Below are positions 6,899 to 45,237 of a stretch of DNA of 64,000 nucleotides, in pieces. This DNA is from an uncultured Caulobacterales bacterium (lineage in GTDB: Bacteria; Pseudomonadota; Alphaproteobacteria; Caulobacterales; CAYPOX01). Location of the stretch: NCBI GenBank assembly GCA_964412525.1, contig CAYPOX010000002.1, positions 27 to 64,026 of the forward strand, in the 5' to 3' direction. Numbering within the stretch: position 1 is the stretch's first letter; each line of letters opens with the position of its first letter. The notes beneath the pieces are model-generated. The model had not been told where the DNA came from. It searched no databases and was given only the letters and a program-made list of their open reading frames with translations. The translations under genes were made by a program, and so were the position numbers.

Positions 6899-6938
6899 TG
6901 TTTCCGCATTTTGATTGGGGGCGACGGCTGCTTTGAGT

Positions 6939-7877: not shown

Positions 7878-7885
7878 AATAATAC

Positions 7886-17759: not shown

Positions 17760-18173
17760 TCAACGCGAAGACCCTGTACCCATCCGCTCCCGGAACCAAG
17801 CCGCCAGCGCCGCCTCGGTCACGGCGCCGCTCGCGACGCGTTCCATGGTCCCGATCGCATCCAGCGGCTCGAAGCGGAGCCGGTAACCGTTATCGGCGAG
17901 GAACAGTCGCGCCGCGACCCACGCTGTGCGTTTGTTGCCGTCCACAAAACTGTGATTCTTCGCGATGCCAAACGCGTAGGCCGCCGCGAGATCGGCCGCG
18001 TCCGGGTCGCCGTACTTGGCGAGATGGATAGGCCGGGCAAGCGCGCTCTCGATACGGCCGGCGTCGCGGACGCCCTCGGCTCCGCCATGCTCGGCAAGCT
18101 GCCGATCATGCACGGCGGCGATGACAGCCGGATCAATCCAGCGCCAATTTTTGGATGTTCGGTCGGCGTTCAC
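17760..18173 (-). CDS. doc: Doc (death-on-curing) Fic-fold toxin
   Basis: 137 aa with the Fic/Doc motif HSFVDGNKRTA. 4-nt overlap with the upstream antitoxin gene. Confidence 0.9.
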   Translation of the reverse strand: MNADRTSKNWRWIDPAVIAAVHDRQLAEHGGAEGVRDAGRIESALARPIHLAKYGDPDAADLAAAYAFGIAKNHSFVDGNKRTAWVAARLFLADNGYRLRFEPLDAIGTMERVASGAVTEAALAAWFRERMGTGSSR

Positions 18174-22071: not shown

Positions 22072-22536
22072 TCAGATAGTCATTCCGTGTCGGTCGAGGG
22101 CCGCGTTTGCGGCTTCGTCGAACGGGTTGATGATTTCAACGCCGCCGATGACGGCGCGTGCGTCCATATCTTCCGTCACCAAAGCGGTGATTCCCCCTTT
22201 CGACAGCGTCGCGACAAGAAGCGCATCCCAATAGGAAAGGCGATCGCTATTCCACCAATTGAGCGCCAGATCGACCGCCCCTTTCGTTGCGGCCACGGTT
22301 TCGAAGGCCTGCAACCAGTCCTGCGCGGCGAGCGTGGCGTCCGATTTTGAAAGTACGCCCTTTCGCACGATTGCTGAGGCGAACTCACCGACCGTTTGAA
22401 GCGCCAAACTGCCGGATTTGGCATGCAACGCGTGACCAATGATGAGCCGGCACCGCGCTCGTTTCATCCCGTCACGATGGTCCATCGTGTAAAAAAGAAT
22501 GTTGGCGTCGAACGCGATCCGACTGGCGGCGGACAC
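22072..22536 (-). CDS. vapC: PIN-domain toxin VapC
   Basis: 154 aa. IAFDANILFY near the N-terminus and ALVTEDMD near the C-terminus (PIN acidic residues). 3 nt downstream of a Phd/YefM antitoxin gene. Confidence 0.85.
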   Translation of the reverse strand: MSAASRIAFDANILFYTMDHRDGMKRARCRLIIGHALHAKSGSLALQTVGEFASAIVRKGVLSKSDATLAAQDWLQAFETVAATKGAVDLALNWWNSDRLSYWDALLVATLSKGGITALVTEDMDARAVIGGVEIINPFDEAANAALDRHGMTI

Positions 22537-22539
22537 TTG

Positions 22540-22836
22540 TTAAAGCGACCGATCATGAAGAGCGTCGCGGTCGCCTCGGAAAGTCCATCCGTCGTGAGAG
22601 CATCGCTTTTGATCCATCATCGCTTCGAGGCGCTTGACGGCGGCTTCGCGACGCGTCTCTGCAATCTGCTCGTCGCTTTCGATGGGCGTTATCCGCGCGA
22701 TCGGGCGATTGTTCTTGGTCACGAGAAAGCGCGCCCCTTCCGCAACGCGGCCGATCAACTTCGAGAAATTTTGATTCGCCTCTCGAACGCTGATCTCTTG
22801 ATCGCTTTTCCGATCTTGTTCGACCGCCATGGCCAA
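22540..22836 (-). CDS. Phd/YefM-family antitoxin
   Basis: ISVREANQNFSKLIGRVAEGARFLVTKNNRPIARITPI is a typical Phd/YefM N-terminal domain. Confidence 0.85.
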   Translation of the reverse strand: MAMAVEQDRKSDQEISVREANQNFSKLIGRVAEGARFLVTKNNRPIARITPIESDEQIAETRREAAVKRLEAMMDQKRCSHDGWTFRGDRDALHDRSL

Positions 22837-24445: not shown

Positions 24446-26341
24446 TTAGATCAAGGCGTCCGTTTCGGCATCGAGCGAACGCGCGCCCGCATCCGCCTCG
24501 GCGAGGCCCGGCCGGCCTTCGGCGAGACCCGATTCCAAGAAATGCTGGAGATAGGTGATCAGGCCGAGATTGGACTCAGGGCCGGCGTTCACGAAATCGG
24601 CGACGTCCGGATTCTCCGCGGCGTAGAAGACCGGATCAAAGCCGACGAGCCCGTCCGTCGTCCGGTCGCCCGCCAGAATCTCCGCCTCGCCGAATTGCAG
24701 ATAGTGGACGAACGGGTCGACCGGTTGGCCGTTCGTGTCCACGGCGGCGGCGATGTCCGGATTGGCGGCGCGGTAGGCCGCCGGGTCGAAAAAGGGATTG
24801 GGGTTGAACTGCCGGCCGCCCGAACCGTCCGGCGTGTCGAGGGCGGATCCTTCACGGACGTAGTGCTCGAGCGCGGTGTCGTAGGTGACGACGTCGAGGC
24901 TCGTTTGGGTCGAGGCGTCCTGCTCCAGATAAAAGGCCTCGTCGAACATCGCATCGACGGACAGAAGCGGCGAATATTCGCGCCCCTCCTCCAAGCCGAC
25001 ATCGAACCAATGGGCGAAGCCGTCCAGAGCCGTCGTCACCCCGGCCGCCGCAAGATCCGCGTTGCCGCCGCGGCCGAGATAGAACGCTTGATCGAAGAGG
25101 GCGACCTCGAATTCCCGCAGATCATCCGCTACGAACACCACCTGCTCCCAAGCACCCAACTCTTCCAAGAAGGTGATGCGAAGGCGCAGATCGCCTGCGG
25201 TCAGATCCGCGCCGCTCGGCATCAAGCCGCTCGGCACGTCGACGATCTGGTCCCAAGCATCGTCGCCATTAAGTTCGAAATAGAACCGAGGCGCCTGGCC
25301 GAGCCCGTCCGGCCCGGCCGCCGGATCGATCTCCACGATCGCAGCGTAAGGACTTGGCGCTTGCGCCGGATCGACGGTTCCGAGCGCCGTGGACGTCAAT
25401 GTCTGAGGCTCCTGATCGCTGCGCGCCAGAATCGCGTCCTCGGCGCCAAAATCAAACCAAGTCGCGATCCGATCGATCGCGGGCGCGTCTGTCGGGGTCA
25501 ACGCCCCGTCCACCAGCAAAAGATCCGGCCCCTCGTCGCCAAACAGGCTGAGCGGTCCGGCGAACCCCTCCAGACTGACCAGATCAAGCCCTTCCTGGGC
25601 GATCACCTGCACGCCCCCGAGCCCGGCGTCCGGGCCAAGCTGAACGAGGTCGTTGCCGCCCGTGCCGGTCAGACCGCCGGCGCGCAATCCGTCTTGGGCG
25701 ACGTCCGCGGTGGTGAGGACCGGCGCATTGTCGCCGGCGTTCAACACGCCTCCGGCCTGGGGCGCGAGCGCCAACACCAATTGGTAGGCGCCGCCTTGGG
25801 GATCGAAGAAAAGCTCGGCCTGCAAGGTCTCCGCCGTCACGTCCGCGCCCACCCGAAAGGGCTGATCCGGAAAGATCACGCGATAATCCCAGATCGTATC
25901 GCCCGTCGCCTCCACGAACAGAATGGACAAGGGCTCCGGATCGAGCTCCGGAAAGACGCCGCGGGCCACGCCGACGTCATAAGGCGCGGCCGCAGCGGTC
26001 TCCGACACGTCGACCGCGCGGAGATCGCCCGGCTCCGCCGGCAAGACCACGATCAACTCATCCAAGGCGCTGAAACTCGGCAACAGCGCGTCGCCCGCGC
26101 CGAACGTCCCGGACGCGCCGTCCAGAGGCGCATCGCCCACGCCCACGCCGAAGGTGTCCGCGCCGGGGCCGCCATAAGCGACCGTCGGGCTTTGCCCAAG
26201 GCCGACGATGAGATCGTCGCCGTCGCCGCCGATCAACTGATTGACCCCGGTTCCGAGCGGAGTGAAGTCAAACAAATCGTCGCCGCCGCCCCCGAGGGCG
26301 AATTCGGTCTCCGCGGCGTTTTGTTCGCTGAAAGATCGCAT
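24446..26341 (-). CDS. secreted repeat protein with N-terminal RTX-like Gly/Asp motifs and a C-terminal four-repeat 'FDxxxYLxxNPDV' module
   Basis: 631 aa; AAGGAG lies 7 nt before the ATG; no signal peptide. N-terminus GGGGDDLFDF...LIGGDGDDLIVGLG...YGGPGADTFGVG. C-terminus FDPAAYRAANPDIAAAV..HYLQFGEAE and FDPVFYAAENPDVADFV..LQHFLESGLAEGRPG. The 745-aa plus ORF is its shadow. Confidence 0.75.
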   Translation of the reverse strand: MRSFSEQNAAETEFALGGGGDDLFDFTPLGTGVNQLIGGDGDDLIVGLGQSPTVAYGGPGADTFGVGVGDAPLDGASGTFGAGDALLPSFSALDELIVVLPAEPGDLRAVDVSETAAAAPYDVGVARGVFPELDPEPLSILFVEATGDTIWDYRVIFPDQPFRVGADVTAETLQAELFFDPQGGAYQLVLALAPQAGGVLNAGDNAPVLTTADVAQDGLRAGGLTGTGGNDLVQLGPDAGLGGVQVIAQEGLDLVSLEGFAGPLSLFGDEGPDLLLVDGALTPTDAPAIDRIATWFDFGAEDAILARSDQEPQTLTSTALGTVDPAQAPSPYAAIVEIDPAAGPDGLGQAPRFYFELNGDDAWDQIVDVPSGLMPSGADLTAGDLRLRITFLEELGAWEQVVFVADDLREFEVALFDQAFYLGRGGNADLAAAGVTTALDGFAHWFDVGLEEGREYSPLLSVDAMFDEAFYLEQDASTQTSLDVVTYDTALEHYVREGSALDTPDGSGGRQFNPNPFFDPAAYRAANPDIAAAVDTNGQPVDPFVHYLQFGEAEILAGDRTTDGLVGFDPVFYAAENPDVADFVNAGPESNLGLITYLQHFLESGLAEGRPGLAEADAGARSLDAETDALI

Positions 26342-26505: not shown

Positions 26506-27003
26506 TCAGCTCGAGAGCATGGGCGCGCGGGTCCAGACCTCCGCGCCCAAAGTGCGCCCTTTCACTGTCGACCAGGCGCCGGCCATGCGGTCGTCTCCCG
26601 TCACCTCGAACAGGGCCGCGCCGCCATTGAACGCGATCGCCAGCGCCTTGGCGGAGGCGACCCCCAAGCCTTGATAGCTTTGGCCCTTCATGGCGCCGCT
26701 CTCTATGCGCCAATGCACGGCGTAGACATGGCCGGCAGGCCGGATGTCCACGGCCCCGGCGTAACGGGCACCGTTGGGCGCGAAGCCTTCGATCCGCCAC
26801 CGGCCGATCAGATCGACCCGCGGCGCCGGTTCGGGCGCCGGCGCGGGGGTCGGGCGTTTGCGGAACCAGCCGGCGGCGCGCCGCCAGAGGTTATGGATCA
26901 GACGGAGCGGATCACGCGGGGCGGCCGCGGAGTCGCGGCGAAGGGTCGTCGTCGTCATGTCGTGTCGTCGTTCGGACGGATCAGGGGCGGCGCGCGGGAT
27001 CAT
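26506..27003 (-). CDS. hypothetical protein, translationally coupled to the cadherin-like gene
   Basis: 165 aa. Its ATG (27003-27001) overlaps the upstream TGA (27002-27000) as ATGA. The C-terminal ~100 aa look beta-rich (GRWRIEGFAPNGARYAGAVDIRPAGHVYAVHWRIESG...). No family recognised. Confidence 0.5.
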   Translation of the reverse strand: MIPRAAPDPSERRHDMTTTTLRRDSAAAPRDPLRLIHNLWRRAAGWFRKRPTPAPAPEPAPRVDLIGRWRIEGFAPNGARYAGAVDIRPAGHVYAVHWRIESGAMKGQSYQGLGVASAKALAIAFNGGAALFEVTGDDRMAGAWSTVKGRTLGAEVWTRAPMLSS

Positions 27004-30000
27004 GCGATCGCATCAATCGGCAGGCCGAAAAAGGCGACCCCATCGTCGGCGAGGCCGTCGGCGACGCCCGCATCCCGCGCCTCTTCGCCGGGCGCATAGG
27101 TCAGATCCCCGGTGATCGGATCGCGCAGCCGGAAGACCGGCACGGCCCCGGCCGTCTCCTCCAGAACGCCGCCAAAGCCGACGCCCTCAAACCGGGCTTG
27201 GCCGAACAACGCGTCGCGCTCATCGGGATCGTCGGTGAACACATAGCTGCCGGTAGTCGGATCGAAGAGACGAAAGACAGGCACGCTGTCTTCCAGGCCG
27301 ACGCGGTCGCTTGGGAACACTTGGATCGCGAAATCGGGATCGGCGAGGAAATCCGGCGAGGCGTCAAGCGCGGCCCGCTCGCTGGCGGTCGCGGTCAAGA
27401 GTTCGCCGCCGGCGGCGAGATTGTCAAAGGCGGTGAGCGTCACCGGCGCAGTGAGATCGAAGAGCGGCTCGCCCTCCACGTCATAGACGTAGAAGGCGAT
27501 CCCTTCGAAGCGGAAGGAGGCGGGATCGAAGAATTGCGAGGTGCCGACCGCGGCGGTGGTGTAGAAATGGGAGCCGCGATTGAGATCGAAAAAGCGCACA
27601 ATGGCCGTCGCGCCGTCAAAGGCCTCCGGGAAGGCGGAGAACACCGCCGCCTCGAATTGGAAGCGCGGATCGGCGATCACCGCGTCCCGCTCGACCGGAT
27701 CGATCGTGAAGAAATGGGTTCCGGTTTCAAGATTGACGAAGCGGAAGACGAGTTCGGAGCCGCCGAGGCCGGCGTCCGCGGCGTTCAGGGTCAACAGATC
27801 GAGGGGCTCGTCGTCGAAGGCCGGCGATGCGTCGAGCGCCGCTTGCTCCTCCGGGCTGACGGAGAACAGGAAGTCGCTCGCCGACGGATTGAAATAGCCC
27901 GGCACGATCACCGCCCGATCCTCCACCGTGCGCGGATCGGTTTCGTCTCCCACAAGGTCGAGAATTTCGATCGTCAGCGCGCGGCTGTCGCCGGTCACCG
28001 CGCCGTCCCGCGCCGCGACCGTGATCTCATAGAAATTGTCGCCATTCGCGTCCGCAGGCGCTTCGAAATCGGCGCGCGCGGCGAAGATCAGATCGCCGGT
28101 GAGCGGATCTACGAGAAAATCCGCCGCATCCGGCCCGCCCAAAATGACGAGGTCCGGATCATCGCCCGGATCGGGATCAAAGGCGGAGACCGCCGCCACG
28201 CCGCGGCTGTTTTCAAGCACGCGAATGATCCCGTCCTCGCCGGTCTGACCCAGTTCCGGATCGACGATCACGGTCGGCAGATCGTCCACGCCCGTGACCG
28301 TGACCTGAATCTCGGACTCCGCGACCCCGCCTCGGGCGTCCAGGACGGCGTAGGTCGCGACGTCGAGCGCGCTTTCGCCCGGCAGGAGCACGTCAAAGGC
28401 CCCGTTCGGGTCATAGGCGAAGAAGCCGTCATTGCCGACCGTGAGGATCGCGCCGGACGGCAAGATGAGAGGCGCGTCCACGGCCTCGGCGAGACCGTCC
28501 ACGGCGGTCACCACGAAGGGATCGCCGTTCGGATCGAAATCGTTGAAGAAGGCGTTGCCGTTCAAGACTTGGTCCGCCGGCGTCGTCACGTCGTCGACGC
28601 GCGCGGTCGGCGGATCGTTCTCCGCCACCTGGATCGTCACCGGGCCGGTGGAGAGGCCTTGGGGATCCTTCAACTCCACGTCGAAGCTGCCCATCCGCAT
28701 TTGCGGATTGGCGAGCACGAAGATGATCTCTCCCGCGGCGATCTCGGAGGAGGCGATCTCGATCGCGACCGCTTCGGGATCGGAGGTGCGCGCGAGAAAG
28801 CCGTTGGTGGCGTTCGAGACGAAGAAGATGAGCTCGTCCTGGGTCGCGTCCGGATCAACGCCGATCAGATCCTCGGCCGTGACCGGCACCACCGGCACGC
28901 TTTCGATCGTGACGGTGCGATCGCCTTCGATGACGGGGACGTCGTTCTCGCCTTCGATCGTCAGCGTCACACGGCCGAAGCTGATCCGATCGGTCGTGTC
29001 GATGATCGCGTATTGGAAGCTGTCTTCGGCGGTCTCTCCGTCAAGGAGGAAATCAAAGGCGTCGAGAGGATCGTAGAAAACGTCGCCGTCCTGGACGAGC
29101 TGCACGAAGGCGCCGGAATTCAGATCTGCGTCCAGGCGCAATTCCGGTTCGAACACCAGCGTGCCGATCCCATCCTTGAAGGGCCCGAACAGATCGACCC
29201 GGATGAAGTCGCCGTCGACGTCGAAATCGTTTTCAAGCACGTCGAGGGAGAGGATTTCATTCTCCCCCACCCGGCCGTCTTCGCCCACCTCGACCACATC
29301 GTCGATCGCCGTCGGATCGTCCTCCACCGGCGTCACGGTGAGATTGATCGTGATTTGGGCGGTCTCCTGATCGTCGGTGACCTCGACGATCAGGGAGTCG
29401 CTGCCGAAGAAATCCGGGTTCGGCGTGTAGAGGAGCTTCGTCGTCGGGGTGACGGGGTCGATCTCGGTCGTCGGCTCGAGCTTCGCCGCCTCAACAGTCT
29501 CCCGCACATTAAGAAAGAGATTGGTCTCGCCGTTTGCGGGCGCCGTCACGATCCGCCAGGACAAGCGGTCTCCGTCATCCGGATCGAACACCTCAAGCAA
29601 GGAGGTTAGATCGACATCGACGGAGTCCTCCGGGAGGGTTAGCGACGCCGTCGCGCCTTCCGTAAAGACCGGCGCGTCGTTCACCGGCAGGATGGTGACG
29701 TCGACTTTGAGGGTCGCGGTCAGCCCCGCGCTGTCCGTGGCGCGGATGACGAAAACGTCCGTCCCGGTCTCGTTCAAATTTGGTATATATTCGATGCCTG
29801 TCGGCGTGTTGCCGACTTTGTCGATGCTTGGAACGACGAAGGGGACCCCCTCCACCACGCCGCGGGTCGGGAGAAGATTCGCGTCGGTCTCGTCGAAATC
29901 CCAGCGGATATTTTCGCCAAGATCGCGATCGTCGACGAGCAGCAAGGCGTCAAGATCGAAGGGCGTGTCCTCCGTCACCTCGATCGCAATCTCCGTGCGT

Positions 30001-31370
30001 TCGTCGAAATCGGGCGGCGATCCGCCGACGGGCGGCGCATCCGCCACGCCGGCGATCTCGATGGTGACGACCGACGTGTCCTTGTCGCCAAAGGCGTCGA
30101 CGATCGTGACCTCAAAAGTGTCGATTCCAGGCGCGCCGCCCTCGACGAGGAAATCGAACTTCGCGTTCGGATCGTAGATGAGCGTTTGCGTGTCCTTGTC
30201 GAACAGAACCGCGCCTTTGGTTCCAGCCGTCGACACGCTGTCGATCACAAGATCGCCGCGCGGACCATCGATGTCGGAATCATTCCCAAGAATGGGCTCG
30301 TAAAGATTGTTCGTCCGTTCAATCTCCGAGCCGGCGAAGACATCATCAGCCGCCGTCGGCGCGTCGTTCTGGCCGGTGACGGTGACGAGCACCGCGCCGG
30401 TCGTTTGCTCGCCGTCGCCATTGCGCGCGGTGAAGGGAACACGGTCCGTCGCCGTTTGACCCTCCGCGAGGGTCTCGAAACCGCCGGCCGGATCGTAGCT
30501 CAAAATCCCCTTGTCAGCGTCGAAGATCGCCGTTCCCACCAAATTCGGCGCATCGAGCTCAAACTCAAAGATTTCATAGGATTCTGGAACGCCGTCAGGA
30601 TCCGAGACAACCGCAAGCACTTCATTCAACGTGATCGTCGCCGCAGGACCGTCTTCCTTGGCGCTGAGCGGCGCCTCGCCCGCCACCAGCGGATCGTTGA
30701 CGCCGATCAAGCGTATGACGCTGGTGACCTCGCTGACGCCGCCGACGCCGTCGGAGATCTCGACCGTGACGGAGTCGAAGAATTCGTCGCCCACGCGGAC
30801 GAAGTTGAACTGATCGTTCGGGTCGTAAACATAGGTCCCGTCAGCCTGGACGGTGACGAGGGCGCCGGACGCGAGCGTCGTCTCCACGCCCACCGCGGCC
30901 GCCGATCCCTCCACCTTGCTGACAAAGATGATCTCGCCGTCGGCGTCGAAAGCGTCTTCGAGGAGTTCGCTCGCGACGGGCGGGCCGTCTTCAGTGGTCG
31001 AGACCTCCTCGTCCGGCGCAAAGGGCGCGTCGTTCTGGCCAGTGATGGTGACGACCACCAAGGCGGTCGCTTGGTTCCCGTCTTCATCCTCAATCGTGTA
31101 AGCGAAGGAGTCCGTCGCCGTTTCACCCTCGGCCAGGAACTCGAATAGGCCACGTCCGTCATAAACGACCGTGTCGGCGTCCGGATCATAAACGGCCGTT
31201 CCGATCGTGTCGGAATCGTCCACCCCGACAATGACCAGCGGGGAGCCTTCGGCGTCGCTGTCGTTCAAGATCAGCGTTTTCGAGCCGATGGTGAGGCGGG
31301 CGTTGTCCTCAAGCAGGCTCGCGGCGTCGTCCAAAGCGATCGGCGGCGTCGTCATAAAGGCATCCGTCAT
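27000..31370 (-). CDS. 1456-aa cadherin-like/VCBS-repeat surface protein with C-terminal DUF5648-like repeats
   Basis: About ten ~100-aa units end in the cadherin-like/VCBS signature (VVVTITGQNDAPFA, VLVTVTGQNDAPTA, VDVTILPVNDAPVF, IQVTVTGVDDLPTV...). The last ~250 aa carry four repeats such as VPVFRLFDPTTGSYVFTDDPDERDALF. No Sec signal (MTDAFMTTPPIALDD). Confidence 0.8.
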   Translation of the reverse strand: MTDAFMTTPPIALDDAASLLEDNARLTIGSKTLILNDSDAEGSPLVIVGVDDSDTIGTAVYDPDADTVVYDGRGLFEFLAEGETATDSFAYTIEDEDGNQATALVVVTITGQNDAPFAPDEEVSTTEDGPPVASELLEDAFDADGEIIFVSKVEGSAAAVGVETTLASGALVTVQADGTYVYDPNDQFNFVRVGDEFFDSVTVEISDGVGGVSEVTSVIRLIGVNDPLVAGEAPLSAKEDGPAATITLNEVLAVVSDPDGVPESYEIFEFELDAPNLVGTAIFDADKGILSYDPAGGFETLAEGQTATDRVPFTARNGDGEQTTGAVLVTVTGQNDAPTAADDVFAGSEIERTNNLYEPILGNDSDIDGPRGDLVIDSVSTAGTKGAVLFDKDTQTLIYDPNAKFDFLVEGGAPGIDTFEVTIVDAFGDKDTSVVTIEIAGVADAPPVGGSPPDFDERTEIAIEVTEDTPFDLDALLLVDDRDLGENIRWDFDETDANLLPTRGVVEGVPFVVPSIDKVGNTPTGIEYIPNLNETGTDVFVIRATDSAGLTATLKVDVTILPVNDAPVFTEGATASLTLPEDSVDVDLTSLLEVFDPDDGDRLSWRIVTAPANGETNLFLNVRETVEAAKLEPTTEIDPVTPTTKLLYTPNPDFFGSDSLIVEVTDDQETAQITINLTVTPVEDDPTAIDDVVEVGEDGRVGENEILSLDVLENDFDVDGDFIRVDLFGPFKDGIGTLVFEPELRLDADLNSGAFVQLVQDGDVFYDPLDAFDFLLDGETAEDSFQYAIIDTTDRISFGRVTLTIEGENDVPVIEGDRTVTIESVPVVPVTAEDLIGVDPDATQDELIFFVSNATNGFLARTSDPEAVAIEIASSEIAAGEIIFVLANPQMRMGSFDVELKDPQGLSTGPVTIQVAENDPPTARVDDVTTPADQVLNGNAFFNDFDPNGDPFVVTAVDGLAEAVDAPLILPSGAILTVGNDGFFAYDPNGAFDVLLPGESALDVATYAVLDARGGVAESEIQVTVTGVDDLPTVIVDPELGQTGEDGIIRVLENSRGVAAVSAFDPDPGDDPDLVILGGPDAADFLVDPLTGDLIFAARADFEAPADANGDNFYEITVAARDGAVTGDSRALTIEILDLVGDETDPRTVEDRAVIVPGYFNPSASDFLFSVSPEEQAALDASPAFDDEPLDLLTLNAADAGLGGSELVFRFVNLETGTHFFTIDPVERDAVIADPRFQFEAAVFSAFPEAFDGATAIVRFFDLNRGSHFYTTAAVGTSQFFDPASFRFEGIAFYVYDVEGEPLFDLTAPVTLTAFDNLAAGGELLTATASERAALDASPDFLADPDFAIQVFPSDRVGLEDSVPVFRLFDPTTGSYVFTDDPDERDALFGQARFEGVGFGGVLEETAGAVPVFRLRDPITGDLTYAPGEEARDAGVADGLADDGVAFFGLPIDAIA

Positions 31371-31426: not shown

Positions 31427-32965
31427 TCACTCCGTGAAGGCGGTCTCCAAAGGCAAACCGAACGCCTTCATCGCCGGTGCGGTGTTGACGAGGAAGCGAT
31501 CGGCCTGCTTGCGCAACTCGGCCTTCGCCGCGTCGTCATTCTCAGCAGGCTTGCCTTCAATCATCACATTGCGTCCTTTGGATCTCAGATCCGCCAACAC
31601 GCGATCGACGATGCCGTCCGCCGACCCGTCGCCGAAATGCTTGGCGTAGATCTGATCCATGGCGCTCATCGCGAACCCGGCGCCCAAGCCGGAGGCGAGC
31701 ACGTGGACGGTGCGTTCCGTCAAAGTGCGGTCCAAGACCTCGCGGTTGAACGGCTTCGGCGGCGCGCCATCCTTCCGCATCACCGGCGACGCCTGGCCAG
31801 AGATCAAAAGCGCTTCGACGGCGCTGTAAGCCTTCTCAAAGGTGTCGGCCCCGGATGCGGCATGGAGTTCGCGGATCGTCTTCGGGCCGTCCGCCAGGGC
31901 CTCGACCGCGGCGCGCACGACCGGCGTGTCGAATTTGGCCTGCCGTCCCATGAGCTGGGCTTCGAACTTAATCCCCTCGCCGCCGACCCGTAGCGCGATC
32001 ACGCTGTCGGCGAGAACGTCCCGCTGTTCATTGCGGCTCAATCGGCGACCGCCGCGGGTGTAAATGTCGCGCCGGAACTGGGCGTTGGTGCAGTAATCGC
32101 GCGCCAGCTCCCGCAACTCCATAGTGGGCAGCTCGTTGACAAGTTGGAGCTGATCCTGTGTCAACGTGTATCGGAAATTGTTTTCCGCAAACGTCGCCGA
32201 CGCCGCGAAGGTGAGCTTCGCCTCCCCCATCTCCGCCATCGCTTGGGTGACGTAGAGCGGATACCAGGCCTGATTGAGATACTCCTGGGCGAGATAATTC
32301 ACGGGCTTTTTCTCGAGCCCTTCCATCATCTTCGACATGCGCGCATTGGTGGCGAAAGCGACGGCCTTGGCGTCCTTCAGCTTCTCGCCGAATTGGATCG
32401 CCTGGCGCACCTTATGGGTGGATTGGCCCGGCACGATCGCCGCATATTCGGAAAACAGCCGCTGGAGCGGCGCGATCGTCGCCCAACCCGGCAGGGTGTT
32501 GTAGCTCACATAAACGAGCCCCCCCGGCGCCAAGAACTTCCGGATGAACTCCACCATCTCCCGGCGGTTCTCCGGCGTGATCCAGGAATAGACGCCATGG
32601 GTCACGATATAGTCGAACTGCGGAAAATCCGCATCGACCGCATCGGCGAAGGCCATTTCGTGAAACGCGACATTGCCGATATCGCCCTCCCGCGCGAGCC
32701 GTCGCGCATTGGAGATGTGCACGGGCATGAAATCGATCCCATGCACCTCCGCCTCCGGATTGGCCGCGGCGAAGACATTGGTGGACAGGCCGTTGCCGCA
32801 ACCAAGTTCGCAATAGCGAAAGCGCGCGCCGTCATGCTCCGGCGGCGCGACGCCGCGCGTGACGGCGGCGAAGTTCAAATGCGCCGGGCCGAGCTCTTGG
32901 AAAAATTGGGTCGTGTATTCCTGATCGACAACATACCCGTCTGACCAATCGGACATGGGTGACAT
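31427..32965 (-). CDS. SAM-dependent methyltransferase of the 'methyltransferase regulatory domain' (PKMT-like) family
   Basis: Track ORF 31427..33007; ATG 32965 follows AGGAAAGGA. RYCELGCGNGLSTNVF (motif I) and FDYIVTHGVYSWITPENRREMVEFIRKFLAPGGLVYVSYNTLPGW, which I recognise as the hallmark of this ~520-560-aa family. Confidence 0.8.
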   Translation of the reverse strand: MSPMSDWSDGYVVDQEYTTQFFQELGPAHLNFAAVTRGVAPPEHDGARFRYCELGCGNGLSTNVFAAANPEAEVHGIDFMPVHISNARRLAREGDIGNVAFHEMAFADAVDADFPQFDYIVTHGVYSWITPENRREMVEFIRKFLAPGGLVYVSYNTLPGWATIAPLQRLFSEYAAIVPGQSTHKVRQAIQFGEKLKDAKAVAFATNARMSKMMEGLEKKPVNYLAQEYLNQAWYPLYVTQAMAEMGEAKLTFAASATFAENNFRYTLTQDQLQLVNELPTMELRELARDYCTNAQFRRDIYTRGGRRLSRNEQRDVLADSVIALRVGGEGIKFEAQLMGRQAKFDTPVVRAAVEALADGPKTIRELHAASGADTFEKAYSAVEALLISGQASPVMRKDGAPPKPFNREVLDRTLTERTVHVLASGLGAGFAMSAMDQIYAKHFGDGSADGIVDRVLADLRSKGRNVMIEGKPAENDDAAKAELRKQADRFLVNTAPAMKAFGLPLETAFTE

Positions 32966-33133
32966 TCCTTTCCTTAAAGGCGAACGCGCGGGCGCGCCGA
33001 CGCGCACGAGCTTTCGTCTCGCTTGAACCAGGCTTGCGCGCGCCGCGCAACACCCCTCGCCGCCGGACGGCGGCCCAAAAGAAAAGGGCGGGGCCGAAGC
33101 CCCGCCCTGAAGGCGTGATCCGACTGGATCCGA

Positions 33134-36100
33134 TTAGAAGATGAAATCGGCCGTCGAGAAGCCGAGCGACGTCTCTGTAGAATTCAAATCGCCGTCGACC
33201 ACGATATCGAACGCCAAGTCCGCGGCATCGAGATTGCCATCATTATTGACGTCGACAAAAACGCGGAAGACGTCGTCCAGCGTGGCGTCGCCAACAAAGT
33301 CCGCAACCGCGTCGTTGAATTCGACCTTGACGCCATCATCCGTGCCGCCGTCATCGAAGAAGTTAGCTCCCCCAGCGGCCGCCGTGAAAACGCCAACCGA
33401 CGCGACCGTCCCGTTCACCGTCTGATTGGTGAGGCTCAAATTCGACAAATTGATCCGGTCGGACCCATCTTCGAAGTTGATAATCACGTCGCCCGTGCCG
33501 CCGGTGGCATTGGCTTCCGTCGACAAGATCGTGCCTGCGCCATCGTCGAAGAAGAACGTGTCCGCCGACGCGCCGCCGTCCAACACGTTCTGCGTGCCAG
33601 CCGCGCCAGAGCTGATCGTGTCCGCGAAGCCCGTGCCGATCACGTCGACAAAGCCCTCAAGACCGTCATCGTCCGCGCCGCCAACGAAGCCGTCAGTGTC
33701 GCCGAAGCCGCCGCCGGAAATGACAAGCTTCGTGTCGTCGCCGGACGTATCGTTGAACAGGTTCACCGTCACGCTCGTGGTGCCCAGCGAAAGGTCGAGA
33801 ACCTCATCGCCCGTACCCGAAGCCTTATCCTGCTCGCCGTCCGGAGAGACGCGGAACGTGTCAACACCGCCAGCCGTGAGGGTGATGATGTCTTCACCAC
33901 CGCCGTCGACAACAATGTTGTCGTCCGTTGAGTCAGCGACCTTATCGTCGCCGTCGCCGAGAATGATATTCTCGAGTTTGTTCGCTCCGAACGCCAGATT
34001 GCCCGCCGCTTCGATGTCGGTCGCGCCCGCCACCGTGCCGGCCGCGAGGTCGACGGTCAGATCCTCATTGTCTGCGGAAAGATCCGCCGTATCGCCGAGA
34101 ACCTCATTGCCTTCCGCATCCGCCGACAGATCGACCGACGTTTCGTCCACGCCGTCATCCGACAGAATGATCAGATCATCGCCGTCGCCGCCAAGGATCG
34201 TGTCCGCACCGTCACCATCACGGATCGTGTCCTCGCCAGCGCCGCCATCAATCGTGTCATCGCCGGCGCCGCCCTCGATAATGTCATCTCCGGCGAGGCC
34301 CGTCAGCGTGTCGCCTCCTTCGCCGCCATAGAGTTCATCGTCTTGGAGGCCGCCGGTGAGCACGTCGTCGCCCTTCAGACCAAAGAAGATCTGCGGGGCG
34401 GACCCGCCAACGAACGTGTCGACTTGCGTCGCGTCGTCCGAACCGACGATGACCTCAATGTTGAGGATCGAGCCGTCGTCGATCGTAAACGCTCCTGAGA
34501 AATCCGTGTCGAAGTTGTCGGAGGAACCCACCGACAAATCGATCAGCAGGGCCTTGCCGACGACATCTCGAAGATCGAGGACGTCGAAATTGCCCGCGTT
34601 GCCGTTGAACACGTCGTCGCCGCCCAGATCATCGGTGAAGACCAGGAAGATGTCGTTCCCATCGCCGCCATTCGCCTGATCTTCGCCTTTGCCGCCAACA
34701 AGAACGTCGATCCCCTCGCCGCCAAACAACACGTCGTCTTCATCGTCGCCGATCAAAACGTCGTTTCCAGCGCCGCCGTCCAACGTGTCCGTGCCCGTGC
34801 CAGTGGTCAAAAGCTGGACCTTGTTTGAGCCGGTCGTCGGAAGACCAAGATCCACGACCAAATCGACATCGAACGGATCCGGATTGCCGTCGCGGTCCAG
34901 GTCAATCGTCGTCGTGGAAAGCACCCGGTCGCCCGTCTTCAGATCGATCGCGCTTAGGGCCAAAGCGACCTCGGCGTCGTCGATCTGCAGGCGGTTACCG
35001 CCAATCAAGATGTCGTCGCCGCCGCCGCCCGTAAACGAGTCGTTGCCGCCATCGCCGAGGAACAGGTTCTCGCCGGCAGTGCCCGCTTCCGTGTCGCCGT
35101 TCACCGTGCCGACGAAAATGATGTCGCCGATCGGCTCGAACTGAATCTCGCCAAGTTGGCCGCCATAATCGACGCGCAAACCGTTGGTGAAGAGATCCGC
35201 TTCGTTGAGATCGAATGCGAGATCCGTGTCTTCGTCAAAATCACCGTTACGGTCGAGGTCGACGAAAATCCGGAAATTGTTGATATCGCCGATCTCTGTG
35301 CCACCGAGCTGCTCCGCCACTATGACGACATCGCCGCCAAAGATTGTGGAGTTGAAGAAGTCGGCCTTGCTGTCCGTGGTGCCGGTCGTCGAACTGACGC
35401 GGACATCAAGAACCTGAAGGGCGTCATCAATGCCGTCGCCATTCTCCGCGCCCTTGCCGCCATCAAAGGCGGCGTCATCGTCGCCCGGCGATTCATTGCC
35501 TTTAACGCCATCGCCATCGACGTCGAAGATCGCGTCGCCACCGGTGTTCTCAAGGCCGCCAGCCTTGTTCTCGATCGAAAAATCGGAAATGTCGATCAGA
35601 TCGTTGCCCGCAGTAAAGCCGACGATCGTGTCGATGCCTTCCGTCGTCGAGTCGAGCGCACCGCCCGGGTTGTTGTCGTCGAACACCAACTCCGCACGAC
35701 CGTCATTAAACTCGAGATCGACCAGCGGGTCGACCGAGTCGGTGAACTCGATCCGGATCACCAAGTCCCGAGCCGAAATCGTGCCGGCGACGTCGTTGAG
35801 CTCCGAAACGAGCACCAAGGTGTCACCGGAGTCGATCGCCCCATTATTGTTGGTGTTTTCATAGTAGAAGATACCGACATCGTTGTCGCTATCTTTGACA
35901 ACCAAGAAGATATCATCGCCATTATCAAGATCAGAGATCACGCCGAACTTGGCTGCAGCATCCCCAAGATCAAAATCTTCAATCTTAATGCCGATATTGT
36001 CTTCCAAGAAGAACACGCCGCCTTCATCAACATCAAAGCTGTTGATCGAACCGGCGTTGATCACGCCATTCGTGGTCAACACGTTCGTCAGTCCGCCCGA

Positions 36101-39100
36101 GAACACCACAAAGTCTTCCGAAGTCGTGAAGTTCGAAACCGAGTCCGCCGAACCCGTGCCGACTGAAAGGCCGCCACCGGTCGGAACCGTGTTGCCGTCC
36201 GACACAGACGTGTAGATCACCCGATCGACCAGCTCGCCCGCAGGCGCGCCACTATTGGCAAGGTCGATGACGTCGCCGCCTGCTTGGCCGGTGATCTCGT
36301 CCTCGCCTTGGCCAGCCACGATCGTGTCCGCACCGTCGCCGCCGAGCACAACGTCGTCGCCCTCGAAGGCGTTGATAACGTTCACTGCCGACGAGCCGGT
36401 GATCACGTCGTTATATTTTGTGGCGTTGACGTCCTCGAAGCTGACGAACGTCGTGGTGTCGAGATTGCCGTCTTGGACGACGCCAGTGACCAAGTTGATG
36501 AAAATTTCTTCGACGCCGTCATCGTCGAAGGTGTCGTCGTCGGTCGCGCTGTCCTTGAACGGATCGATGTTGAACGACAGGTCCGCGCCGCCATTACGAA
36601 GATCGATCAAGTCCGACTTACCCGTACCGATGAAGGTGATGTCGCCTTCATTCGCCACGTAATCAACGCCGCCGAGATTGCCGGTCGTGATCTTCGCGTA
36701 TTGCTCGGCGTTCGTGTCGAAATCATTGACAAACCGACCAAGCGGATCGGCGTCGTCATTCGAGTTGCCGGTTAGATCGCCCGCGCCGTCGGATTCTTGG
36801 AATTCGCCCAAGAAAACCGTAATCGGCGCGCCGTCATTGGTGTTGTCGCCATCGTCCGAAAAGGTGTTGCCGGAGTAGTCGAGCACGTTCGCGCCGCCAT
36901 TCAGGAAGAAGTCCTGATTACGGTCCGCCTCATTGTTAGTGAGACGGATCGTGTTGGCGAAATCGGAGCCGATCACGCGATCGAATTCGAAGTTGCCGCT
37001 GTCCTCGATGAACGTAACAAACAGCGTGTCGTCAGCGCCCGTACCCTCTTTAACCGTGACGGTCTCGAAGGACGTGTCCGCACTGTCCTCCTCGCCGTTT
37101 TCGTCCGCGACGTCGCCCGCATTGAACTGAACGGTCAGATTCTCGTCCGTGGACGAAAGGTCGATCGTGTTGACGCCGGTGCCGCCAACATACTGCTCAG
37201 CTCCGCCATCCTTGAAGAGATCCACACGATCCTTCGCGCTGCCGTTCAAGTTGTTATCGTCACCTTCATCAACGAGCACCCAATCGACGTCGGCGATAAA
37301 GTCCGCCTCTTCATCTACCGAGGTGATCACGAAGTTCAGATCCGAGCCCTCATTACGATAATCGCCGATATCCGTGCCGCCGGCCAGAGAGAATTGAAGC
37401 AGCACGACATTGTTCGCCGCCACTTCGCCGGCCACGTCGATCTTGCCGTCGCCGTCGTCGGCGATGCCGAACTCGGTCGTGAAGCCCAAAGCGGCTTCAA
37501 GGAAGCCAACCTTCAGACCCGCATCGTCGTCTTGGTTCACCTGATTGTCCGCCAAGATGACGCGGTCGTTGCCGGACGAACCCGTGACGCGCTCGAACTG
37601 AGTGATGCCGTCGATTTCAACGGTCTCATTGCCGAGGGTCGAGTCGTTCACCGTCACGCCGCCGGCCTCGAGAGTGTTGCCCTCCAGGATCGTCAGCGAG
37701 CTGACCGCGCCGTCCACGCCGCCCTTGGTGTCATCCAAGGCGACCGGGCCGCCGAAGTTGACCACCGCGCCGCCGAGATTGGAGACGTCAAGGACGTCTT
37801 GCCCAAAACGAACGTCCGCATCGTCGTCGTCGTCTAGATCAGTGAAGTCGATGCCGGTCGCCGCCAAGGTGGCGTCAAAGCGCTCGACATCCACCAACGT
37901 ATCGTCGGACCCGCCAGCGTAGCTGATCACATCCGTTTCCGTCGCCGTTTCAACGGTGAAGGTGATCGTCGGCCGCACCGAAAGATCGTCTTCCGCGTCG
38001 CCCGCGACGCCGTCGCCGTCATTGTCCGCCGTGGACGTCACGTTGGAGTGGTCGACGGTGACCTTGTCGTCGTTCTCATTGCGGCCCGTGATGTCGCCGT
38101 CCGTCTGATCGCCGAGGGACAGCGTGTTGGCCACGCCGAGCTGCGACTGGTCGAGATAAACAAGATCGTTGGCTTTGCCGGTGATGATGTTTTCCGCACC
38201 GAGCACAAGCACCAGTCCGCCCAGGTCGACTTCATCCTTATCCGTAAAGATGTCGTCATTGGTCAGCGCGTCGTTGTCGTTGACGTCCTTGTCATAGGTG
38301 ACGCCCGCATCGCCGGCGCCGTTGGTCTCCGTCGTCAGGCGGATGTTCAGACCTTCGAAGTCCGGTTGGTTGTCGCCGCCCGCGTTCACATTGTCGTCCG
38401 GACCGATGACGTTGTCGCCCGCACGGTCCGCCACGATGTCGTCGGACACCGCCGACAGATCGTAGGTGTCGTTCTTCGTGTTGGACAGCGTACGCAACGT
38501 CTCAACGTTGAGGAGGTTCGTCCGGTACTCGATCTCCGCATCCGCATCGACATTCACGTTCACCACGGTCGTTTGATCAGCCGCCAAGAGGCCCGGCGCG
38601 ACGATCGTGAACTCCGCGAAGTCGCCGAACAGCTGCTCGTCGAACACGACATAGTCGTCGTCGCCGCCGCCGTCGATCGTGTCGGCGCCAATCAAGAGAA
38701 CGGACTTCGTGCCGTAAATAAGGTCGTCGCCCGATCCGGCGTTGATGACGTCGTCAACGTCCGAACCGACGATCAGATCGTCGCCGTTCTTGCCGTTGGT
38801 GTTCTCGTCAAAGCCCGTGATCGTGCCTTTGAACAGCGAACCGTCCGCACGGTCTACAAGAATGCCGGCCACGGAGTCTTCGTCCTCGAACGTGTCGTTC
38901 GTGCCCGCGCCCACGAAGAGAATGTCCTCTTTCGTGAAACCGCCATCCGGATCGTTGCGCACGTCGAAGCCGAACAAATCGACCGCCACGCCGACCGCAT
39001 CGTCCTGACCCGTATTGTCGAAGATCTTGACGAACTGCTCGCTCGCCGAGTCCACGTCGAGGAAGGCGACGTGACGGTTGGCGCCGCCGAACTGCGCGTC

Positions 39101-45118: not shown

Positions 45119-45237
45119 ATAGGGTGCGGCGTCTTTGACGGGCGCGCATGGATGCGCGTATGGCTGGCGCCGTCCGCGGAGCCGGCCCGGAGCGACCCGC
45201 GCCGAACGACGGAACGACCATTGAGGAACGAATTCTG

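Follow-up and report, generated by a model that had tools for sequence, protein, structure and literature searches.

The window (the whole stretch of DNA analyzed, 64,000 nucleotides of a contig from an uncultured Caulobacterales bacterium) encodes two unrelated leaderless proteins, a cadherin-like adhesin and a phosphatase, each carrying DUF5648 at its C-terminus, as had been predicted from the sequence at the outset. The T1SS that had been invoked as a possible exporter is also present, with a PrtD-subfamily ABC transporter and an HlyD adaptor encoded between the two cargo genes, and three neighboring genes encode further likely substrates. The features are as follows.

24446 to 26341, minus strand: acidic 631-aa protein, leaderless, carrying three GGxGxD motifs and ending in ...TDALI; likely T1SS substrate
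27000 to 31370, minus strand: adhesin-like gene; leaderless ORF of 1456 aa with Pfam and NCBIfam repeats and two DUF5648 domains
27003 to 27020, minus strand: last residues of the adhesin, PIDAIA, in which Asp is followed by three small or hydrophobic residues; candidate T1SS recognition motif
27021 to 27443, minus strand: DUF5648 domain B of the adhesin (aa 1310-1450; the second Pfam stretch), with degenerate blade 3 and blades 4 and 5
27483 to 27911, minus strand: DUF5648 domain A of the adhesin (aa 1154-1296), comprising blade 0 (degenerate) and blades 1 and 2 (canonical)
33134 to 42847, minus strand: giant RTX protein of about 3214 aa with HemolysinCabind matches and 11 GGxGxD motifs, ending in ...ADFIF; likely T1SS substrate
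43487 to 45118, plus strand: RTX protein of 543 aa with HemolysinCabind matches, ending in ...DDLLI; likely T1SS substrate without DUF5648
45148 to 47010, plus strand: T1SS ABC transporter of the PrtD/AprD subfamily (ABC_membrane, ABC_tran; TIGR01842, 717.5 bits against a cut-off of 510)
47090 to 48544, plus strand: T1SS periplasmic adaptor of the HlyD family (HlyD_3; TIGR01843, 385 bits against a cut-off of 209)
53142 to 55724, plus strand: phosphatase gene; leaderless protein of 860 aa, 5'-nucleotidase/UshA-like metallophosphoesterase family, with C-terminal DUF5648
55308 to 55697, plus strand: DUF5648 domain of the phosphatase, with degenerate blade 1 (55308-55406) and intact blades 2 (55428-55553) and 3 (55578-55697)
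55698 to 55721, plus strand: extreme C-terminus of the phosphatase, GSDVDLIG, containing Asp-Leu-Ile-Gly; candidate T1SS recognition motif

The adhesin consists of about eight tandem-95, Big_9 or cadherin-like repeats followed by the two DUF5648 domains. Its Pfam matches were to Big_9 and Cadherin_4 (eight stretches each), Cadherin_5 and DUF5648, and its NCBIfam matches were to tandem-95 (seven stretches), VCBS and, weakly, a BapA-type model; the repeat types are shared with its tandem-95 and cadherin-like homologues. There was no HemolysinCabind match in Pfam, and a motif scan found no canonical GGxGxD (RTX) motif, with a single match to the looser G[GAS]xGxD. The name "retention module-containing protein" is given to some homologues but not to the window adhesin, and the latter matched none of the NCBIfam retention-module models, so that some other form of tethering would be needed.

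The longest ORF of the phosphatase runs from 53067 to 55724, and the Met at 53142 is its probable start; homologues begin at the same Met, and P0162, of 860 aa, is identical to the phosphatase query region. Pfam matched 5_nucleotid_C and DUF5648, while the NCBIfam 5'-nucleotidase-family matches all fell below their curated cut-offs. The protein opens directly with the catalytic core (MSFQLQLLHASDLEGG), as do its homologues, "alkaline phosphatases" that share the leaderless core at 45-50% identity and start M..LQLLHASDLEGG. Neither a HemolysinCabind match in Pfam nor a GGxGxD motif in the motif scan was found in the phosphatase.

A Pfam-A profile search (gathering cut-off, 25 bits) matched PF18885 (DUF5648) in both proteins, confirming the family to which the repeats had been assigned at the outset. 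The adhesin scored 104 bits (E = 9.8e-30) in two stretches, the better aligning aa 1160-1295 with positions 6-133 of the 134-position profile, and the phosphatase scored 57.2 bits (E = 2.8e-15) over aa 779-876 against positions 39-133; relative to the cut-off, both matches are far beyond chance. The peptides quoted in the original prediction occur in the sequence where it had placed them. A DUF5648 domain comprises three blades, each of strand-strand-helix-strand, that form a (beta3-alpha)3 propeller (PMC11299179; JBC 2025). The conserved blade motif, [VI][YF]RF.N..TG.HFYT....ERD......[FY].[FY]EG.A[FY], was recognizable in six of the nine window blades (1, 2, 4 and 5 of the adhesin and 2 and 3 of the phosphatase), some of them lacking the His or the Glu-Arg-Asp, and the other three blades are degenerate, with nearly all conserved residues gone. 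Two of these, at aa 1154-1195 (27786-27911) and aa 1310-1352 (27315-27443), had been overlooked when four repeats were counted in the adhesin, which has instead six blades, apparently arranged as two three-blade domains; with them, its DUF5648 feature spans 27003-27911. The phosphatase has three blade positions by register alignment, the first shortened and degenerate.

AlphaFold2 predicted blades 1 and 2 of adhesin domain A with a pLDDT of 80-97 (blade 0 mostly below 50), blades 4 and 5 of domain B with a pLDDT of about 73-88, and phosphatase blades 2 and 3, as strand-strand-helix-strand, with a pLDDT above 90 (blade 1 region below 50). The register alignment and the model also led us to reject the idea that the tails are a separate conserved motif. 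They are mostly the third strand of the last blade (DGVAFFGL in the adhesin, EGVAFFVF in the phosphatase), and only the six to eight residues of PIDAIA (27003-27020) and GSDVDLIG (55698-55721) lie outside the domain. The final residue block of the phosphatase, including GSDVDLIG, averaged about 56 in pLDDT and was assigned no secondary structure, suggesting that it is flexible.

Pairwise identity among the three DUF5648 domains of the window is 31-34%, and an unrelated canonical domain is just as close to them (30-42%). They therefore share a family rather than being a recently copied cassette, and the idea that the two tags are recent copies of one another was rejected. Between the phosphatase and its closest homologue, P0163, the DUF5648 region is only 30.5% identical, against 67.8% for the catalytic core. 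Fast divergence is typical of specificity-determining binding modules, but the rate seen here is equally compatible with weak constraint. DUF5648 is widespread, with 5,195 cluster representatives at E <= 0.001, yet it is without a solved structure by our PDB sequence and Foldseek searches, and its function is still putative: a C-terminal stretch of 316 aa matched no PDB chain at E <= 1, and with both AlphaFold models the best Foldseek match in the PDB had an E value of only 0.18. Against a viral library, Foldseek returned three matches, one at E = 2e-4 and the others weaker; the matched proteins were unnamed or uncharacterized, and one came from a cyanophage.

The T1SS genes are some 14 kb away from the gene for the adhesin and some 5 kb from that for the phosphatase, and the ABC transporter has no N-terminal C39 or CLD domain. 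The gene for the 543-aa RTX protein (pI 4.05, no Cys) is directly upstream of the ABC gene. The giant RTX protein (probable start at 42778, pI 4.05) has no DUF5648; nor does the 631-aa protein, for which no Pfam or NCBIfam family was matched. A non-exhaustive scan of window ORFs recognized no gene for a TolC-like or other outer-membrane component.

The two cargo proteins and these three RTX-type neighbors lack signal peptides and Cys residues, have a pI of about 4.05 and contain 17-20% Asp plus Glu (adhesin: pI 4.05, 0 Cys, 20.0%; phosphatase: pI 4.05, 0 Cys, 16.7%). Sequence reading and a crude hydrophobicity count showed that the longest-ORF N-termini of the adhesin and the phosphatase are acidic and nonhydrophobic. 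All five likely substrates end in Asp followed by three residues from [AILVFMG], an ending present in only 6 of the 181 window ORFs of at least 90 aa, and both cargo proteins thereby carry the extreme C-terminal acidic and hydrophobic motif of PrtD/AprD-class substrates. AprA-type substrates have Asp plus three hydrophobic residues at the end, and exposure of this motif at the C-terminus is required (PMC2642768). The window proteins resemble AprA, PrtG and serralysin-type substrates in having no signal peptide, in being acidic and cysteine-poor, and in ending much like these proteins, whose uncleaved C-terminal signal finishes, at its free end, with Asp and then three hydrophobic residues; moreover, the exporters of AprA-type substrates are PrtD/AprD-family ABC proteins, the subfamily encoded near the window genes. 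They differ in that serralysins carry GGxGxD beta-roll repeats just upstream of the signal, where the window proteins have DUF5648 blades.

The DUF5648 repeats themselves had originally been suggested as a possible retention or secretion tag. The secretion half of this suggestion was not supported: the three other likely window substrates carry the same terminal motif without DUF5648, the domain is common in signal-peptide, Gram-positive and Bacteroidales proteins, and in Roseibium/Labrenzia proteins it is N-terminal while the RTX repeats and T1SS-type end stay C-terminal. At Roseibium loci L037, L052 and L065, for example, it occupies the extreme N-terminus of leaderless RTX proteins that have a normal T1SS-type C-terminus. 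Many of the surveyed proteins likewise have DUF5648 after a signal peptide or at the N-terminus, and in such proteins it is separable from the secretion signal. The four-residue C-terminal motif is a likelier export signal than DUF5648. With a tail of only six to eight residues beyond the last strand, a signal would have to overlap the folded blade. In native AprA/PrtG/serralysin-type structures the signal is part of a folded C-terminal cap.

What DUF5648 does may be approached through better-studied proteins. It is the C-terminal domain of BSAP-2 and BSAP-3, killing by BSAP-2 requires a specific O-antigen, and the literature assigns DUF5648 to the receptor-binding domains at the C-termini of O-antigen-targeting toxins. 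This placement and target led us to read DUF5648 as a lectin-like targeting or retention module, a reading that for the BSAPs draws on genetics and analogy; in the literature searched, we found no demonstration of direct glycan binding by any DUF5648 domain, and the proposed glycan or receptor binding is no part of how Pfam defines the family. It is also an auxiliary domain, with surface aromatic grooves, of GH70 glucan enzymes, and a study of its fusion to a GH25 endolysin domain treated it as putatively cell-wall-binding. Grooves of this kind, on a small pseudo-symmetric propeller, are characteristic of lectins. Similarities of the BSAP and GH70 proteins to the window proteins lie in Pfam family, in blades predicted as strand-strand-helix-strand with probably three per domain, and in having DUF5648 C-terminal to an unrelated functional domain, with a proposed role in binding a target. 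They differ in having Sec signal peptides, whereas the window proteins are leaderless and T1SS linked, with blades that are partly degenerate, a last blade with an acidic-hydrophobic ending and, in the adhesin, tandem domains. By analogy, then, DUF5648 probably decides what the cargo sticks to after export, and a retention role is plausible; the degenerate window blades could reflect a loss of binding.

Taken together, these comparisons make it, in our judgment, somewhat better than an even bet that both proteins are substrates of the contig's T1SS and that their C-terminal block has two separable parts, an end signal and a lectin-like DUF5648. The signal for the PrtD-type ABC transporter would be the last strand of the last blade plus the flexible Asp and three small or hydrophobic residues, and the three further window substrates would bear the same terminal signal without DUF5648. 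The DUF5648 domains would be small three-bladed strand/helix propellers acting as lectin-like binding modules, which would fold outside the cell after export (in a T1SS, C-terminus first) and then tether their cargo to polysaccharide. In this way the phosphatase might stay at the cell surface, and the adhesin, lacking an N-terminal retention module, might be fixed to its ligand. We infer that export would be through the contig's T1SS, that DUF5648 would bind glycan and that the candidate ligand would be either LPS or capsule of the cell itself or a glycan borne by a partner surface. Points against this model are the degenerate blades, the short tails, which would force the signal to overlap a folded blade, the lack of an identified TolC-like gene in the non-exhaustive scan, the rarity across genomes of T1SS genes near DUF5648 genes, and the absence from both proteins of RTX repeats, on which large T1SS passengers usually depend (PMC6891781).

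Giant RTX adhesins are T1SS exported and have long runs of Ig- or cadherin-like calcium-binding extenders, with ligand-binding domains near the C-terminal end. Rap proteins of Rhizobium leguminosarum are cadherin-like, calcium-dependent lectins that are secreted by the PrsDE T1SS and retained on the cell through its own acidic polysaccharide. They are thus an alphaproteobacterial precedent for glycan-mediated retention of T1SS cargo, but unlike in our proposal, the cadherin-like domains themselves are the lectin, and DUF5648 is not involved. The architecture of the giant adhesins is also described in PMC6891781. Tandem Ig/cadherin-like extender repeats are common to them and to the window adhesin, which is much shorter, matches no retention-module model and has no RTX repeats, whereas proteins of the LapA, SiiE and MpIBP type are anchored by an N-terminal retention module and end in RTX plus signal.

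The best-surviving alternative, which we nonetheless consider rather unlikely, is that DUF5648 is mainly a secretion and folding module, the terminal blade and tail replacing RTX repeats plus signal, with ligand binding secondary or lost. DUF5648 would then emerge first, fold outside and serve RTX-less cargo as its folding nucleus or ratchet. In serralysins the signal lies within the folded C-cap and extracellular folding drives a ratchet (PMC6891781), in keeping with such a role. RTX was the most frequent C-terminal module among the leaderless relatives of both cargo families. Of the 120 homologues listed for each, about 36 for the phosphatase and about 30 for the adhesin had RTX repeats, to which a serralysin-type C-terminal domain was sometimes added; Bacteroidota homologues paired a signal peptide with a T9SS sorting domain. 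The window proteins are RTX-less and have DUF5648 at the C-terminus instead, a domain present in 3 of the 120 listed for the phosphatase and in 1 of the 120 listed for the adhesin, the window adhesin itself. In proteins like P0003, L003 and L008 the RTX repeats are found well upstream, the final ~145 residues being taken up by DUF5648, so that the signal must overlap the last blade. The sequence [VIAL][DE] followed the last strand in 51 of 97 (53%) terminal blades of leaderless proteins, but in 2 of 25 where the protein had a signal peptide and in 4 of 391 (1%) internal blades, class sizes in this and our other surveys being approximate because signal peptides were called by a crude hydrophobic-window count. 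Finally, blades of the phosphatase lineage have lost conserved residues while keeping the predicted fold. Against this alternative, DUF5648 is widespread in proteins that are Sec-dependent or belong to Gram-positive bacteria or Bacteroidales, and it also occurs N-terminally, which means that its ancestral role was not T1SS export; the three window substrates without it are presumably exported all the same. P0163, moreover, has about 65 residues between its last blade and its ...DDVLI end, so the signal can be separate from DUF5648.

The survey did reveal something new, in that alphaproteobacterial and cyanobacterial leaderless proteins have terminal DUF5648 blades with a Val-Asp/Glu and hydrophobic ending. 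A broader proposal, which we hold with less assurance still, is that in these groups such a blade and ending form an unrecognized structured T1SS secretion domain that replaces RTX plus signal, one propeller being at once export signal, first-out folding nucleus and glycan anchor.

It is improbable, in our view, that DUF5648 binds something other than polysaccharide, such as a protein receptor or peptidoglycan peptide, or self-associates into a surface layer or matrix. The ligand is only putative for every DUF5648 domain, the five very acidic secreted proteins of this one locus could co-assemble, and the survey of cargo domains that the original prediction had called for found fusions to peptidases M10, M23, S8 and C10. 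The same survey found fusions to GH16 and GH5, which join GH70 and GH25 as glycan-active partners; the lectin-typical build of small grooved propellers also favors a glycan, and the only available receptor genetics point to the O-antigen.

Least probable of all is that the neighboring T1SS does not export the two proteins, which would take another route or stay intracellular, their location and ending being coincidental: the missing RTX repeats, the outer-membrane component not identified in the non-exhaustive window scan and the rarity of T1SS genes beside DUF5648 genes would fit, but the Asp-plus-three ending is almost confined to five proteins of the window, all large, leaderless and acidic, whose composition is what T1SS substrates typically have, leaderless phosphatase homologues mostly carry RTX, RTX occurred in 14 of 46 leaderless proteins with C-terminal DUF5648 and was outside the 25 commonest families in 49 signal-peptide DUF5648 proteins (approximate classes), and an adhesin and a 5'-nucleotidase-type phosphatase would have no obvious cytoplasmic role. 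As to that rarity, only 2 of 80 genomic loci (L036 and L045) had a convincing ABC transporter or adaptor of a T1SS no more than 10 kb from the DUF5648 gene, the loci being found with an alignment of canonical domains from which the divergent window sequences were excluded; this is roughly chance level by our estimate and therefore counts neither for nor against.

If the two-part model is true, it would explain the export of enzymes and adhesins that have no RTX repeats, their retention near the producing cell, where released phosphate would be kept from diffusing away, and the use of a portable "address label" on varied cargo. A rule for the T1SS secretome of marine alphaproteobacteria and cyanobacteria (leaderless protein, terminal DUF5648 blade, Val-Asp/Glu plus a few hydrophobic residues) could improve prediction, and in practice the gain would be a tag for protein display that combines secretion with anchoring. 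The window is a compact natural test system on a single small replicon, with a PrtD-type T1SS, five likely substrates (two with DUF5648 and three with RTX-type ends) and glycan-synthesis genes. The contig's glycan genes encode GT2 and GT1 glycosyltransferases, an ABC-2 exporter permease, a PglD-like acetyltransferase and several methyltransferases. A megablast search with 24 kb of the sequence matched no plasmid, and by RepA and ABC transporter similarity the source was placed as a Rhodospirillales-like alphaproteobacterium. The contig is plasmid-like, and its RepA is 54-56% identical to Azospirillum plasmid RepA.

The original prediction, made from the sequence alone, held that a cadherin-like adhesin (1456 aa) and a phosphatase (860 aa) share a C-terminal DUF5648-like repeat, and all of the peptides that it quoted were found where it had placed them. 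A Pfam-A search (gathering cut-off, 25 bits) bore this out, assigning to DUF5648 (PF18885) the C terminus of the adhesin, in two stretches (104 bits, E = 9.8e-30), and that of the phosphatase (57 bits, E = 2.8e-15). By Pfam and NCBIfam models, the rest of the adhesin consists of tandem-95, Big_9, and cadherin-like repeats, and the rest of the phosphatase belongs to the 5'-nucleotidase/UshA-like phosphoesterase family. The genes and domains lie as follows:

27000-31370, minus strand: adhesin ORF (1456 aa), with DUF5648 at its 3' end
27483-27911, minus strand: first adhesin DUF5648 domain (aa 1154-1296), in blade register
27021-27443, minus strand: second adhesin DUF5648 domain (aa 1310-1450), in blade register
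53067-55724, plus strand (probable start, 53142): phosphatase ORF, with DUF5648 at its 3' end
55308-55697, plus strand: phosphatase DUF5648 domain; three blade positions, the first shortened and degenerate

The 134-position DUF5648 profile spans three repeats, or blades, of ~45 residues, each of which is strand-strand-helix-strand, as in published GH70 auxiliary domains and BSAP toxins. Read in this three-blade register, the adhesin has six blades and thus two domains; the four repeats first recognized in it are real blades, but in each domain a degenerate first blade had been overlooked. The separate "tails" had been misread, as DGVAFFGL and EGVAFFVF form strand three of the last blade, and only PIDAIA (adhesin) and GSDVDLIG (phosphatase) lie beyond it. 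AlphaFold2 models were consistent with this anatomy where the sequence is canonical, with pLDDT values of >90 and the expected topology for phosphatase blades 2 and 3, 80 to 97 for adhesin blades 1 and 2, and ~73 to 88 for adhesin blades 4 and 5. Degenerate blades were modeled with low confidence, both in the adhesin and in the phosphatase, where pLDDT was <50 in the first-blade region and averaged ~56 in the final block. The three domains share 31 to 34% identity, no more than they share with an unrelated canonical domain; this rules out a recent common copy of the tag and leaves only a shared family. That family is large (5195 cluster representatives at E <= 0.001 in an exhaustive profile-free search), and neither sequence search nor Foldseek comparison of the AlphaFold models with the PDB found a solved structure resembling its fold.

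A type I secretion system (T1SS) operon sits between the adhesin and phosphatase genes. Its members and two associated genes are as follows:

43068-43394, plus strand: small HTH_3 (XRE-type) protein, a candidate secretion-locus regulator encoded directly upstream of the RTX, ABC, and adaptor genes
43487-45118, plus strand: RTX (GGxGxD repeat) protein, operon member
45148-47010, plus strand: ABC transporter, PrtD subfamily (TIGR01842, 717 bits against a cut-off of 510)
47090-48544, plus strand: HlyD-family adaptor (TIGR01843)
24446-26341, minus strand: 631-aa glycine-rich acidic protein, one of three RTX-type neighbors

On the opposite strand, the order is a giant RTX gene (33134-42847), a methyltransferase gene, the adhesin gene, a small ORF, and the gene for the 631-aa protein. 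The adhesin, the phosphatase, and the three RTX-type neighbors are alike in having a pI of ~4.05, no cysteine, 17 to 21% Asp plus Glu, and no signal peptide. Furthermore, a terminal motif of Asp followed by three residues from [AILVFMG] ends 6 of the 181 ORFs of at least 90 aa in all six frames, and 5 of these 6 are the same five proteins. This is the motif of AprA/PrtG-type substrates of PrtD-family transporters, for which, according to the passage of PMC2642768 citing Ghigo and Wandersman 1994, free exposure at the C terminus is required. Operon, composition, and motif together give good sequence support to the T1SS route that had been proposed for both proteins. The secretion feature held in common is the terminal motif, three of its five carriers having no DUF5648. 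No outer-membrane channel gene was identified among the window ORFs scanned, and T1SS genes were not enriched within 10 kb of DUF5648 genes at 80 loci in other genomes.

Several smaller features accompany these genes. Three class I SAM-dependent methyltransferases, one with a "methyltransferase regulatory domain," are scattered among the T1SS and substrate genes (31427-33007, minus strand; 48601-49566 and 49968-50984, plus strand); their substrate could be a glycan or a secreted protein. The small ORF after the adhesin gene (165 aa; 26506-27003, minus strand) is coding-like (GC3, 0.83) and matches no Pfam family; the overlap of its ATG with the adhesin stop codon (GCATGATCC) points to possible translational coupling. 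For the 631-aa protein, neither Pfam nor NCBIfam gave a family. At aa 416 and 518 it carries the motif F-D-x-x-x-Y-L-x-x-N-P-D-[VI]-A-A-A, seen again at aa 128 and 188 of the giant RTX protein, near the N terminus (~42180-42400, minus strand); in a phosphatase homologue, P0174, this motif makes up the C-terminal module.

The suggested survey of tagged cargo, carried out on the best 150 of the 5195 matches plus 12 further proteins, found DUF5648 on many cargo types, in Sec-dependent and T1SS contexts alike; it was C-terminal in 105. An acidic-hydrophobic ending (Asp/Glu plus two to five uncharged residues, at least two of them hydrophobic) was present in 28 of 64 leaderless proteins with C-terminal DUF5648 but in only 1 of 23 with signal peptides, called here and in the comparisons below by a crude hydrophobicity count (Fisher p = 5e-4), and RTX-like motifs were present in 21 and 1, respectively; metagenomic proteins in the set may be truncated. 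Among the leaderless proteins scanned with Pfam (Met-initiated only, n = 46), the partners were RTX (14), FG-GAP (6), serralysin-type M10 peptidase (5), Calx-beta (4), and subtilase (2), with GH16 and tyrosinase in single examples. The 25 commonest families in 49 signal-peptide proteins include Lcl_C, LRR, DUF1800, C10, M23, and GH5; RTX is not among them.

Species-representative genomes were surveyed in the same way, with ORFs cut by a contig end left out. Those of alphaproteobacteria (Roseibium/Labrenzia, Aureimonas, Microvirga, Rhodospira) gave 24 proteins with C-terminal DUF5648, of which 23 lack a leader and 21 have an Asp/Glu-plus-hydrophobic ending, such as YYVDIA, YVDVA, or YWVDPVMG. 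All 18 cyanobacterial examples (Pleurocapsa, Waterburya, Myxosarcina) are leaderless with an acidic residue within the last eight, e.g., YYALPIDTES. Betaproteobacterial proteins (Hydrogenophaga, Acidovorax) mostly have a signal or lipoprotein leader, DUF5648 near the N terminus, and no acidic-hydrophobic ending. Betaproteobacteria encode many paralogous ~600-aa lipoprotein-like proteins, at least eight in one Hydrogenophaga genome, with N-proximal DUF5648 and a C-terminal domain ending ...VRLVR (Hydrogenophaga L014, L015, L022, L031, L046, L047, and L053, among other loci).

It had been proposed that DUF5648 may itself be a retention or secretion tag. The secretion part is not supported, given the terminal-motif carriers that lack it and, decisively, leaderless proteins at Roseibium loci L037, L052, and L065 in which DUF5648 directly follows the initiator Met while RTX repeats and an ordinary T1SS-type C terminus (...GDFILL, ...GEFTLA) are retained. 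DUF5648 is thus a portable passenger module, occurring with signal peptides as well as at the N terminus of RTX proteins. When no other domain follows it in a T1SS-type protein, DUF5648 has gained the acidic-hydrophobic ending on its final blade. Terminal blades of leaderless proteins have [VIAL][DE] immediately after the last strand in 51 of 97 cases, those of signal-peptide proteins in 2 of 25, and internal blades in 4 of 391.

In both cargo families, DUF5648 stands at the usual position of RTX. Among the 120 phosphatase homologues listed, ~36 have RTX repeats, 14 have a T9SS sorting domain (mostly alongside a signal peptide, in Bacteroidota), and only 3 have DUF5648, two of these being the window protein and P0163, a relative with 67% identity. 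Among the 120 tandem-95/cadherin-like adhesin homologues listed, ~30 have RTX or a serralysin C-terminal domain, and only the window protein has DUF5648. Phosphatase-core homologues are 45 to 50% identical, and the leaderless members begin M..LQLLHASDLEGG. By lineage, the leaderless core (P0164-P0281) is joined to RTX, a T9SS sorting domain, choice-of-anchor I, DUF4114, LTD, or DUF5648, a clear case of one enzyme given different export or anchoring modules. P0163 and the window phosphatase are 67.8% identical in the core but only 30.5% identical in the DUF5648 region, and in P0163 ~65 residues separate the last blade from the ...DDVLI end, so that signal and DUF5648 are separable.

An alternative is that DUF5648 serves mainly in the stead of RTX, as a first-out folding nucleus and signal-bearing cap. 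The absence of RTX repeats from both proteins, the specific adaptation of the terminal blade ([VIAL][DE] ending), and the degeneration of blades in the phosphatase lineage favor this idea; as a primary role, however, it seems unlikely to us, given how widespread DUF5648 is outside T1SS and its N-terminal placement in Roseibium. The two roles, binding passenger and secretion or folding element, are compatible rather than exclusive.

On balance we lean toward T1SS export via the terminal motif followed by polysaccharide binding by DUF5648 outside the cell. The PrtD-type T1SS would export both proteins C terminus first, recognizing their exposed Asp-hydrophobic terminal motif; the last strand or blade next to this motif would belong to the signal, and the DUF5648 domains would fold extracellularly and then bind polysaccharide. 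The serralysin signal likewise lies within a folded C-terminal cap (PMC6891781). Polysaccharide binding is supported by BSAP genetics, DUF5648 serving as the C-terminal domain in BSAP-2 as well as in BSAP-3, and BSAP-2 killing needing a specific O antigen; by the aromatic surface grooves of DUF5648 in GH70 enzymes; and by repeated fusion of DUF5648 to cell-wall- and glycan-active enzymes. The C-terminal domain of BSAP-1, from a different structural cluster, was demonstrated to be its receptor-binding part. The adhesin matched none of the NCBIfam retention-module models, so a C-terminal lectin would supply something to hold; the phosphatase would benefit from proximity to the cell. A nonglycan ligand, or self-assembly, is improbable beside these lines of evidence. 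That neither protein is exported by a T1SS is very improbable, as the leaderless, acidic, Cys-free composition and AprA/PrtG-type terminal motif support that route well.

The DUF5648 family and the PrtD-type T1SS class are both already known. Their combination, namely, leaderless alphaproteobacterial and cyanobacterial proteins ending in a DUF5648 propeller whose last blade has an AprA-type acidic-hydrophobic terminus, in place of RTX on otherwise RTX-using cargo families, could not be found in the searchable literature, where no paper listed or read that names DUF5648 or PF18885 deals with T1SS; it could be tested directly on this small replicon.

The contig also carries polysaccharide-type genes:

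2673-3323, plus strand: PglD-like hexapeptide acetyltransferase
10186-12312, minus strand: GT2+GT1 fusion
58930-61182, minus strand: double GT2
61265-62236, minus strand: ABC-2 (Wzm-like) exporter permease
62146-63789, minus strand: Methyltransf_24 protein

Speculatively, these could specify a surface glycan, possibly the DUF5648 ligand, so that a plasmid-specified ligand is conceivable. Plasmid identity is supported by a ParA/VirC1-like ATPase and RepA (51241-51978, plus strand, and 56219-57157, minus strand), the RepA being 54 to 56% identical to Azospirillum plasmid RepA, on a source contig of 64,293 nt; these features favor a Rhodospirillales-like alphaproteobacterial host. A search of the plasmid collection gave no near-identical record. 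At 22072-22836 and 17760-18173 (both minus strand), there are an adjacent small ORF pair, PIN-type toxin/antitoxin-like by eye, and a Fic/DOC-domain protein (Pfam E = 7e-18); such genes are typical plasmid accessory genes. Within an ORF (52471-52926) for a small CCDC90-like/DUF1664-like coiled-coil protein with a hydrophobic C terminus, a 21-bp tandem repeat (52717-52830, plus strand; 5.4 copies, 88% matches) specifies the heptad GEITQVR. Window positions 1 to 8000 have a G+C content of 52 to 57%, against 60 to 70% elsewhere, and few ORFs with a high-GC3 signature; this first ~8 kb may be a foreign or noncoding segment.
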